Positions 61,973 through 64,000 of a stretch of DNA of 64,000 nucleotides are shown piece after piece. The notes under the pieces are model-generated. The model made no database searches. It saw only the letters and a list, made by a program, of their open reading frames with translations, and was not told the origin of the DNA. This stretch comes from Nitrospirota bacterium (GTDB taxonomy: Bacteria > Nitrospirota > Thermodesulfovibrionia > UBA6902). Numbering within the stretch: the stretch's first letter is position 1; each line of letters opens with the position of its first letter. Made by a program: the position numbers and the translations under genes. The stretch lies in contig JBDLIC010000005.1 in the NCBI GenBank assembly GCA_039715075.1, forward strand, positions 202 to 64,201, written 5' to 3'.

Positions 61973-64000
61973 ATGGGATTCCTGGATGACATAAGGCATG
62001 ATTTTAAAACGGTTTTCGAAATGGATCCGGCTGCCAGGAACAGATTTGAAGTGGCCCTTTCATATTCCGGGTTTCATGCGATTTTTTTCTACAGGCTGAA
62101 TAATTTAATATTGAAAGCCGGTGTCCCCTTTTTCCCCCGTTTTCTATCCCAGATCGCCAAAGTGATAACAGGGATAGAGATCCATCCAGGCGCAAAAATA
62201 GGCAAGGGATTATTTATTGACCACGGGATGGGTGTAGTGATTGGCGAGACTTCCGAGATCGGGGAAAATGTGCTTATCTATCAGGGCGTTACACTTGGAG
62301 GGACCGGAAAGGAAAAAGGGAAAAGACATCCTACCCTTGGGAACAATGTAGTTGTTGGTGCAGGTTCGAAGGTTCTGGGAGCTATTACCATAGGTGATAA
62401 TGTTAAAATTGGCGCTAACTCGGTTGTACTTCATGATGTGCCGAAGAATTCCATTGTCGTTGGTGTCCCGGGAAGGGTCATAAAAAAGAGGGTTGTAAAA
62501 ATATTTGAAGACGGGCCTGTCGAGATGCTCGATCATGTGCACATACCTGACCCGCTTGAGGAAAAATTCGAGGAATTTAAGACACATATAAATGAACTTG
62601 AAAGGAGAATAAGCAGCTTGGAAGGCAAGGGTGAAACGATAAAGGTTTATAACACGATGAGCGGGAAAAAGGAGGAGTTTATTCCTGTTGAGAGCGGAAA
62701 AGTAAAGATGTATGTCTGCGGGATAACTGCTTATGATGTATGCCATCTCGGGCATGCGCGCAGTGCAATAGTTTTTGACATTATTAAAAGATACTTCAGG
62801 TACAGGGGTTTTGAAGTGACCCATGTGAGGAATATTACTGATATTGATGACAAGATCATAGCCCGTGCTGCCAAAGAAAATATTTCAACGGAAGAAGTAG
62901 CAAAAAAATATACCGAAGATTATTACAGTGACATGGAGCTTCTAGGGGTAAGCAGTGCGGACATTGAGCCTGATGCTACCCATCATATCAAAGAGATGAT
63001 AGATACCATTCAGGTCCTGATTGACAAGGGATATGCCTATCCTGTTGACGGTGATGTTTATTATGAGGTCAGTAAGTTTGCCGAATACGGAAAGCTCTCG
63101 AAAAAGAATGTGAAAGATCTGATATCCGGCGCAAGGGTAGATGTTGATGAAAGGAAAAAGAGCCCTCTTGATTTTGCCCTCTGGAAATCTTCAAAAGAGG
63201 GGGAGCCTTTCTGGGAGAGCCCATGGGGCAACGGAAGGCCGGGGTGGCATATAGAGTGCACGGCAATGTCGTCAAAATACCTCGGCAACAGCTTTGATAT
63301 CCACGGAGGAGGGGCGGACCTTATTTTCCCTCACCACGAAAACGAGATAGCACAGAGCGAAGCGCAGTCGGGGGAACAGTTTGTAAAGTACTGGATGCAT
63401 AACGGGTTCATAACTGTTGACAAGGAGAAGATGTCCAAGTCCCTCGGGAACTTTTTTACGATCAAGGAGATTCTAAATAAATACGAGCCTGAGGTGGTGA
63501 GATATTTTCTGCTTTCAGCCCATTACAGAAGCCCCATAGAATTTTCTGATGTTCATCTGAATGAGGCCGAACTTTCGATTGACAGGTATTATACGACGGT
63601 CATCAGAATCGATGATTTCCTTGACACCACGGGGAAAAAGGAGAAGATTGATTCATCCGAATAGCTTGAAAAACTGCTTGCATTATTGAAAGATAAATTT
63701 CACGCTGCAATGGATGACGACTTTAACACAGCTCTGGCACTGGGGCATATTTTTGAGATTATCCGCGAAGTAAACAGGTTTCTTGATTCAAAACCCTCAG
63801 GGCAAAAGGCAAAGGAACTGGTGGTCCGGACGAATGAAATGCTTGCTGAAATAGGCGGTGTTCTCAATATCTTCAACAAGACCCCCGGAGAGTGGTACAG
63901 CGCCCTCATGAAGGTGAAAAAGATAGATCTTACGGAAGATGACCTCCAGAAAAAGATCGTCGAGCGACAGGAAGCCCGCGAAGCAAAGGACTGGGGTGCT
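61973..64000 (+). CDS. cysS: fused serine O-acetyltransferase (CysE) / cysteine-tRNA ligase (CysRS); in-frame TAG at 63662-63664; runs off the window end
   Basis: Cys[27 protein letters not shown]; Cys[33 protein letters not shown]; frame stays open 112 codons after TAG with AMDDDFNT and ERQEAR.AKDW. Confidence 0.9.

Follow-up and report, generated by a model that had tools for sequence, protein, structure and literature searches.

The only cysteinyl-tRNA synthetase (CysRS) gene of this Nitrospirota bacterium is interrupted by an in-frame TAG codon in the deposited sequence, and we conclude that this stop is very probably foreign to the organism itself. Its own codon would be GAG, and the deposited T either a mistake of assembly or consensus calling or a rare variant taken up into the consensus. 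The error reading is favored because an independent contig has G at the site, relatives have a sense codon there, and no suppressor machinery was found in the genome. The DNA analyzed is a stretch of 64,000 nucleotides, referred to as the window, which corresponds to positions 202-64201 of contig C5; window position 63662, the first base of the TAG, is C5 position 63863.

An amber codon in a fused CysE-CysRS gene

We re-read the codon and its frame in the deposited sequence. The open reading frame (ORF) begins with an ATG at window position 61973 and runs for 563 codons before the TAG, which takes the place of residue 564. The same frame then continues without a stop for 112 codons, up to the window end. 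On contig C5 it stays open for 141 codons past the TAG, until a TAA at C5 64289-64291, which is the true stop and lies 88-90 bases beyond the window end. With the TAG read as X, the gene encodes a protein of 705 residues. The preliminary description of this DNA had reported an in-frame TAG inside a CysRS gene, followed by 112 stop-free codons encoding the helical and anticodon-binding region. Both statements hold for the deposited sequence, the second through matches to DALR_2, CysS_C, and TIGR00435. Coordinates of the gene and its parts are given in Table 1.

Table 1. Features of the CysE-CysRS gene, in window coordinates.
Feature	Position	Strand	Basis
CysE-CysRS fusion gene	61973..64000, runs off window	+	ORF, Pfam, NCBIfam
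Serine O-acetyltransferase (CysE) part, residues 7-168	61991..62476	+	TIGR01172, Hexapep, PDB matches
CysRS class I catalytic domain, residues 237-532	62681..63568	+	Pfam tRNA-synt_1e, E 2.4e-138
In-frame TAG, residue 564, in putative variable linker between catalytic domain and DALR_2	63662..63664	+	
DALR_2 helical domain, residues 575-634, intact, downstream of TAG	63695..63874	+	Pfam, E 2.5e-16

CysE and CysRS form one polypeptide of approximately 705 amino acids, with a charged linker of approximately 50 residues. The CysE part matches the NCBIfam cysE model TIGR01172 over residues 7-168 with 237 bits, against a cut-off of 210.65. Pfam Hexapep, a hexapeptide repeat of the left-handed beta-helix type, covers residues 119-153, and the SATase_N domain leaves only a weak trace. 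Serine acetyltransferases in the PDB match this part with E-values of 1e-41 to 1e-30 (best 1.3e-41). The translated CysRS has both signature motifs of class I synthetases, a HIGH-type motif (HLGH) and KMSKS. Solved CysS structures include 3tqo, 8qhp, and 1li5/1u0b, and the protein matches 3tqo_A (E 1.1e-144) and 1li5_A (E 7.5e-140); it differs from bacterial CysS in having approximately 220 residues of CysE module and linker fused to its N-terminus.

The residues around position 564 fall in a gap of the 3tqo_A alignment. Since 3tqo is without this segment, the TAG site appears to lie in a variable linker that joins the catalytic domain to DALR_2. Downstream of the site, DALR_2 scores 60.4 bits against a cut-off of 22, and Pfam CysS_C matches residues 664-700 of the read-through protein. 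The NCBIfam cysS equivalog model TIGR00435 matches residues 223-701 with a score of 575.6 bits (cut-off 340), and the match spans the model from one end to the other (positions 1-464 of 466). Because the read-through protein matches all three models, the stretch after the TAG is, as judged by homology, real coding sequence and not a chance open frame.

An open and conserved frame after the stop is one of two features that speak for programmed amber readthrough or suppression, in which pyrrolysine or a suppressor tRNA would give the full-length enzyme. The other is the base directly after the TAG, which is C; a C in this place often makes a weaker termination context. The evidence from the X1 contig, the relatives, and the decoding capacity of the genome, set out below, points the other way, and we consider programmed readthrough highly improbable.

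The site in an independent contig

Public sequencing runs were searched with a 1201-base stretch around the site. Run X1 was the only strong match. Its share of the 31-letter words sampled is 0.97, the value expected if one letter in 1201 is changed; the other 22 runs contained at most 0.14 of the words each, and no RNA runs for the stretch were listed among the public runs searched. X1 is a marine metagenome, represented by its Logan contigs and flagged as a possible source of the deposit, nothing beyond that. One X1 contig (4624 nt, depth 13.2) spans all 601 bases compared and differs from the deposit in exactly one letter. This sole difference is window position 63662, T in the deposit and G in the contig. 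The CysS frame, broken at codon 564 by TAG in the deposit, is thus uninterrupted in the X1 contig, where the codon is GAG (Glu). The G is backed by a depth of 13.2 of 13.2 in total, and the T occurs in no X1 contig; this is a comparison of contigs, which drop rare variants, and a minority T in X1 is possible. The preliminary description had named reads with G at position 63662 as grounds for rejecting the alternatives to an error, and at contig level X1 shows this G.

Other runs contribute less to this site. At 63662, G is likewise read in a short X2 contig from a relative (13 differing letters over 149 bases, depth 2). Run X24 gives no cover at the TAG, and X24, X2, and X3 gave only short pieces of relatives or other organisms.

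The X1 contig is probably an independent assembly of the same reads as the deposit. X1 is a possible source only, and this limits the error reading: the deposit may stem from another run or from a co-assembly, with T in the majority there. The T might also be a real nonsense allele, the binned strain carrying GAG>TAG in its only cysS and the X1 population carrying GAG. Such a strain could survive by near-cognate readthrough or by a truncated enzyme working with a separate C-terminal piece, or the allele could be a recent deleterious variant at appreciable frequency. T does stand in the deposited consensus, and contigs leave room for a minor or strain-specific T. Against a real allele, the X1 contig is otherwise identical over the 601 bases, its sole difference falls on the base that creates the stop, and nothing in it indicates a distinct strain. 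We judge a real nonsense allele to be unlikely.

The aligned codon in relatives

We looked for the fusion gene in 30 related genomes, drawn from the same family and order. Full-length matches numbered 25, in 24 of these genomes, with 66-83% identity to the gene studied here; CysE and CysRS are fused in every one of the 25, and none has an internal stop. Copies in G026 and G027 are pieces cut by contig ends, the match in G028 is weak, and no fusion-gene match was found in G003 (81% complete) or G005 (88% complete). In a further relative, G021 (C73 4423-6362), the CysE-CysRS gene is divided into two overlapping pieces that lie in different frames; two TAA codons interrupt the second. The G021 copy is evidently broken and frameshifted, or mis-assembled.

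Around the TAG site, 19 relatives' loci align without gaps. The aligned codon is GAG in 5, GAA in 11, GGC or GGG in 2, and GAC in 1, so Glu is encoded in 16 of the 19, the first base is G in all 19, and none has a stop. We also examined 80 further loci from genome_contigs. Both anchor motifs, KMSKS and DDDFN, are present in 39 of them, with no stop between the motifs in any of the 39; seven share the spacing seen here and read GAG (3), GAA (2), GAT (1), and GGC (1). As identical peptide strings reveal, these loci come in part from the same genomes as the 30 relatives, and the two sets of counts are not independent.

A sense codon in 19 of 19 aligned loci answers the comparison that the preliminary description had called for. 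It had also ranked a GAG>TAG consensus or sequencing error as the most likely explanation, which is supported by the G in the X1 contig together with Glu in 16 of 19 relatives. Programmed readthrough would draw support from a conserved stop, and no relative has one at this place.

TAG decoding and TAG usage in the genome

Completeness of the genome is rated at 100% and contamination at 0.48%. Across the 269 contigs, aragorn predicted 40 tRNAs and a tmRNA; tRNA-Sec is present. None of the 40 tRNAs has a CUA anticodon, a result that is weak alone and no proof of absence, the set being incomplete and without tRNA-Tyr. A search for PylS (PylS_Cterm, TIGR02367) in this genome, rated complete as stated, returned no matches at E ≤ 0.001 among seven candidates scored, and the best genome match to PylD (TIGR03911) reached 33.3 bits, below the cut-off of 150.05. 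Release factor RF1 (prfA) is present and scores 532.7 bits (cut-off 423).

This genome uses TAG as an ordinary stop codon. In a codon-usage screen, it ended 314 of 1246 gene-like ORFs, which bears out the earlier view that TAG acts as a normal stop elsewhere and that there is no global recoding. An open, coding-like stretch of 40 codons follows 8 of 314 TAG, 11 of 592 TAA, and 4 of 340 TGA gene ends. There is accordingly no genome-wide excess of in-frame TAG in this home-made screen, which has low sensitivity and returns many hits that are adjacent genes. Ten TAG junctions are coding-like on both sides. In nine of them an in-frame Met start follows within 8 codons, which marks them as neighboring genes; cysS is the sole exception.

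These results speak against amber suppression or pyrrolysine incorporation, which the preliminary description had listed as an option. The likeness to pyrrolysine recoding (pylTSBCD) is superficial and consists of an in-frame TAG in a conserved gene. Unlike in pyrrolysine systems, pylS was not found, pylD stays below its cut-off, TAG commonly ends genes, and relatives do not share the stop in cysS. The GAG of the X1 contig counts against readthrough in the same way, as does the RNA around the stop, for which no stimulating structure was predicted. Folding of 136 nt around the stop and beyond it gave a minimum free energy of -24.3 kcal/mol. This is no better than for shuffled sequences, which averaged -25.5 (z = 0.37) and were as good in 123 of 200 cases.

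Second synthetase, short form, and split enzyme

The preliminary description had also allowed for a nonsense allele covered by a second cysS. No second cysS was found in the genome; the other five matches had E-values of 3.2e-7 to 6.7e-5 and fell in ORFs of other sizes. SepRS was not found either, with a best score in the genome of 21.4 bits against a cut-off of 380.65. The covered-allele option is thereby disfavored. Since this is the only cysS in a genome rated complete and SepRS was not found, a true null allele of cysS should be lethal. The same facts, with no SepRS route to fall back on, weigh against a real nonsense allele, as does the expected loss of DALR_2 and the C-terminal anticodon-binding domains from the truncated product.

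Two further possibilities would make the stop functional. One, raised in the preliminary description, is regulated production of a short form; the other is a synthetase split by design, with CysE and the catalytic core ending at the TAG and the C-terminal part made from a downstream start and joined in trans. Split aminoacyl-tRNA synthetases do exist in other lineages, and the nearest in-frame starts after the TAG are a TTG at 63686 (+21) and an ATG at 63710 (+45), either of which could serve a split enzyme. No Shine-Dalgarno-like motif was found from -20 to +90 of the stop, relatives encode the protein in one uninterrupted frame, and the X1 contig has GAG, all of which make a split enzyme very doubtful. 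The regulated short form fares no better, with no stop in relatives, no such motif, and no special RNA structure. In sum, we see no evidence that readthrough is stimulated or that a short form or a split enzyme is made by design.

Other in-frame stops in the assembly

A second gene with an interrupted frame was seen outside the window, on contig C29, where a TAA at 21240-21242 (minus strand) lies within a 207-codon PAS-domain gene (C29 21057-21677). When read through, this gene gives 207 residues, and a Pfam PAS_9 match at residues 52-150 spans the stop at residue 146. The site is Glu in 7 of 7 relatives' orthologues (GAA in 5, GAG in 2), in the context TTCEDITERK. A TAA noted inside the PAS orthologue of G005 was rejected as a shared in-frame stop, as it is the natural stop of that gene. 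Compared with its relatives, then, the assembly has at least two changes of Glu to stop, one in cysS and one on C29, each a G>T in the first position of the codon. Because of the second change, scattered G>T single-base errors in the assembly are suggested; the C29 stop could also mark a real pseudogene.

Two more interrupted frames lie outside the window. On C197, a TAA at 395-397 falls within a match to Pfam N6_N4_Mtase (read-through residues 52-161) in a gene at C197 59-991 (plus strand). The N-terminal half of this gene is apparently missing, and it may be a real pseudogene or another assembly error. On C14 (plus strand), an in-frame TGA at 0-based position 16249 (PQYGGY*AYAVSRG) is coding-like on both sides and is possibly a further selenoprotein, the genome having tRNA-Sec.

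Oxidized guanine in sequencing libraries gives G>T (C>A) artefacts. The cysS and C29 stops, the two in-frame stops compared with relatives, resemble such artefacts in that each is a G>T change, in both cases in the first position of a codon for Glu. They differ in standing in the consensus, whereas oxidized-guanine artefacts are usually of low frequency and should not reach the consensus at a depth of approximately 13.

A real mutational bias would leave the same pattern. In the whole genome, no MutY was found over the cut-off (best 75.2 against 286.5 bits, the match being an endonuclease III-like gene on C47), and Fpg gave no match at all; with these two families, then, the customary repair of oxidized guanine did not come to light. 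A glycosylase-like match on C246 that seemed to contain a TAA was rejected, the TAA being the natural stop of that gene. Taken with the second stop, the lack of an Fpg match and of MutY over the cut-off would also fit real G>T mutation in a lineage prone to it, which speaks in favor of a real cysS allele. In its full form, this account would have the T real in a G>T-accumulating strain of Nitrospirota (Thermodesulfovibrionia-like) without MutY over the cut-off or Fpg. The strain would carry nonsense alleles in its only cysS and in the PAS gene (GAA>TAA), and would survive by near-cognate readthrough of UAG or by a catalytic fragment together with a separate C-terminal piece. We hold this complete scenario to be quite improbable.

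The CysE-CysRS fusion across lineages

The closest named records to the fusion protein are metagenome bins of Nitrospirae and Thermodesulfovibrionia and two 'Bacterium BMS3' bins, with 80-86% identity. In genome_contigs, 18 of 78 loci that have an ORF with KMSKS show CysE and CysRS fused in a single frame, and all 18 bear Nitrospirota-type titles. Apparent CysE-CysRS fusions in Firmicutes were examined and rejected, as they are adjacent genes in separate frames. Loci from Desulfitobacterium, Desulfosporosinus, and Clostridia have the same order, with cysE directly upstream of cysS, but the two genes occupy separate frames and KMSKS lies approximately 265-285 residues into its ORF. In Bacillus subtilis, the corresponding genes form a gltX-cysE-cysS operon. 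The fusion has in common with the Firmicutes cysE/cysS pairs that it brings together enzymes for consecutive steps of cysteine supply and use. No description of a CysE-CysS fusion was found among the papers retrieved, as far as titles and the opening lines of abstracts tell.

Elsewhere in the window, a 351-amino-acid ORF with several CxxCH motifs (60009-61064, minus strand) lies just upstream of a yajQ-like ORF (61366-61860). The former is probably a multihaem cytochrome c; both family names were assigned by eye from the translations.

Implications

If the deposited T is an error, the gene would be an intact and ordinary bifunctional CysE-CysRS gene whose codon 564 is GAG (Glu). The T in the contig would then be one wrong base introduced in assembly or consensus, or at most a variant rare among the reads that the assembler promoted, and no recoding, readthrough, or split synthetase would be involved. 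As to its origin, the error may be a G>T artefact, given the second Glu-to-stop G>T change in the assembly.

The main value of this finding is in quality control. Annotation pipelines would label the only cysS of this genome a pseudogene, or split it, and scans for amber recoding would flag cysS as a candidate; on this evidence, both would be wrong. The second Glu-to-stop change suggests that single-base errors are scattered through the assembly, and any in-frame stop in this genome therefore needs read-level support before it is given a biological reading. The fusion itself is of modest interest for the coupling of cysteine synthesis and charging.
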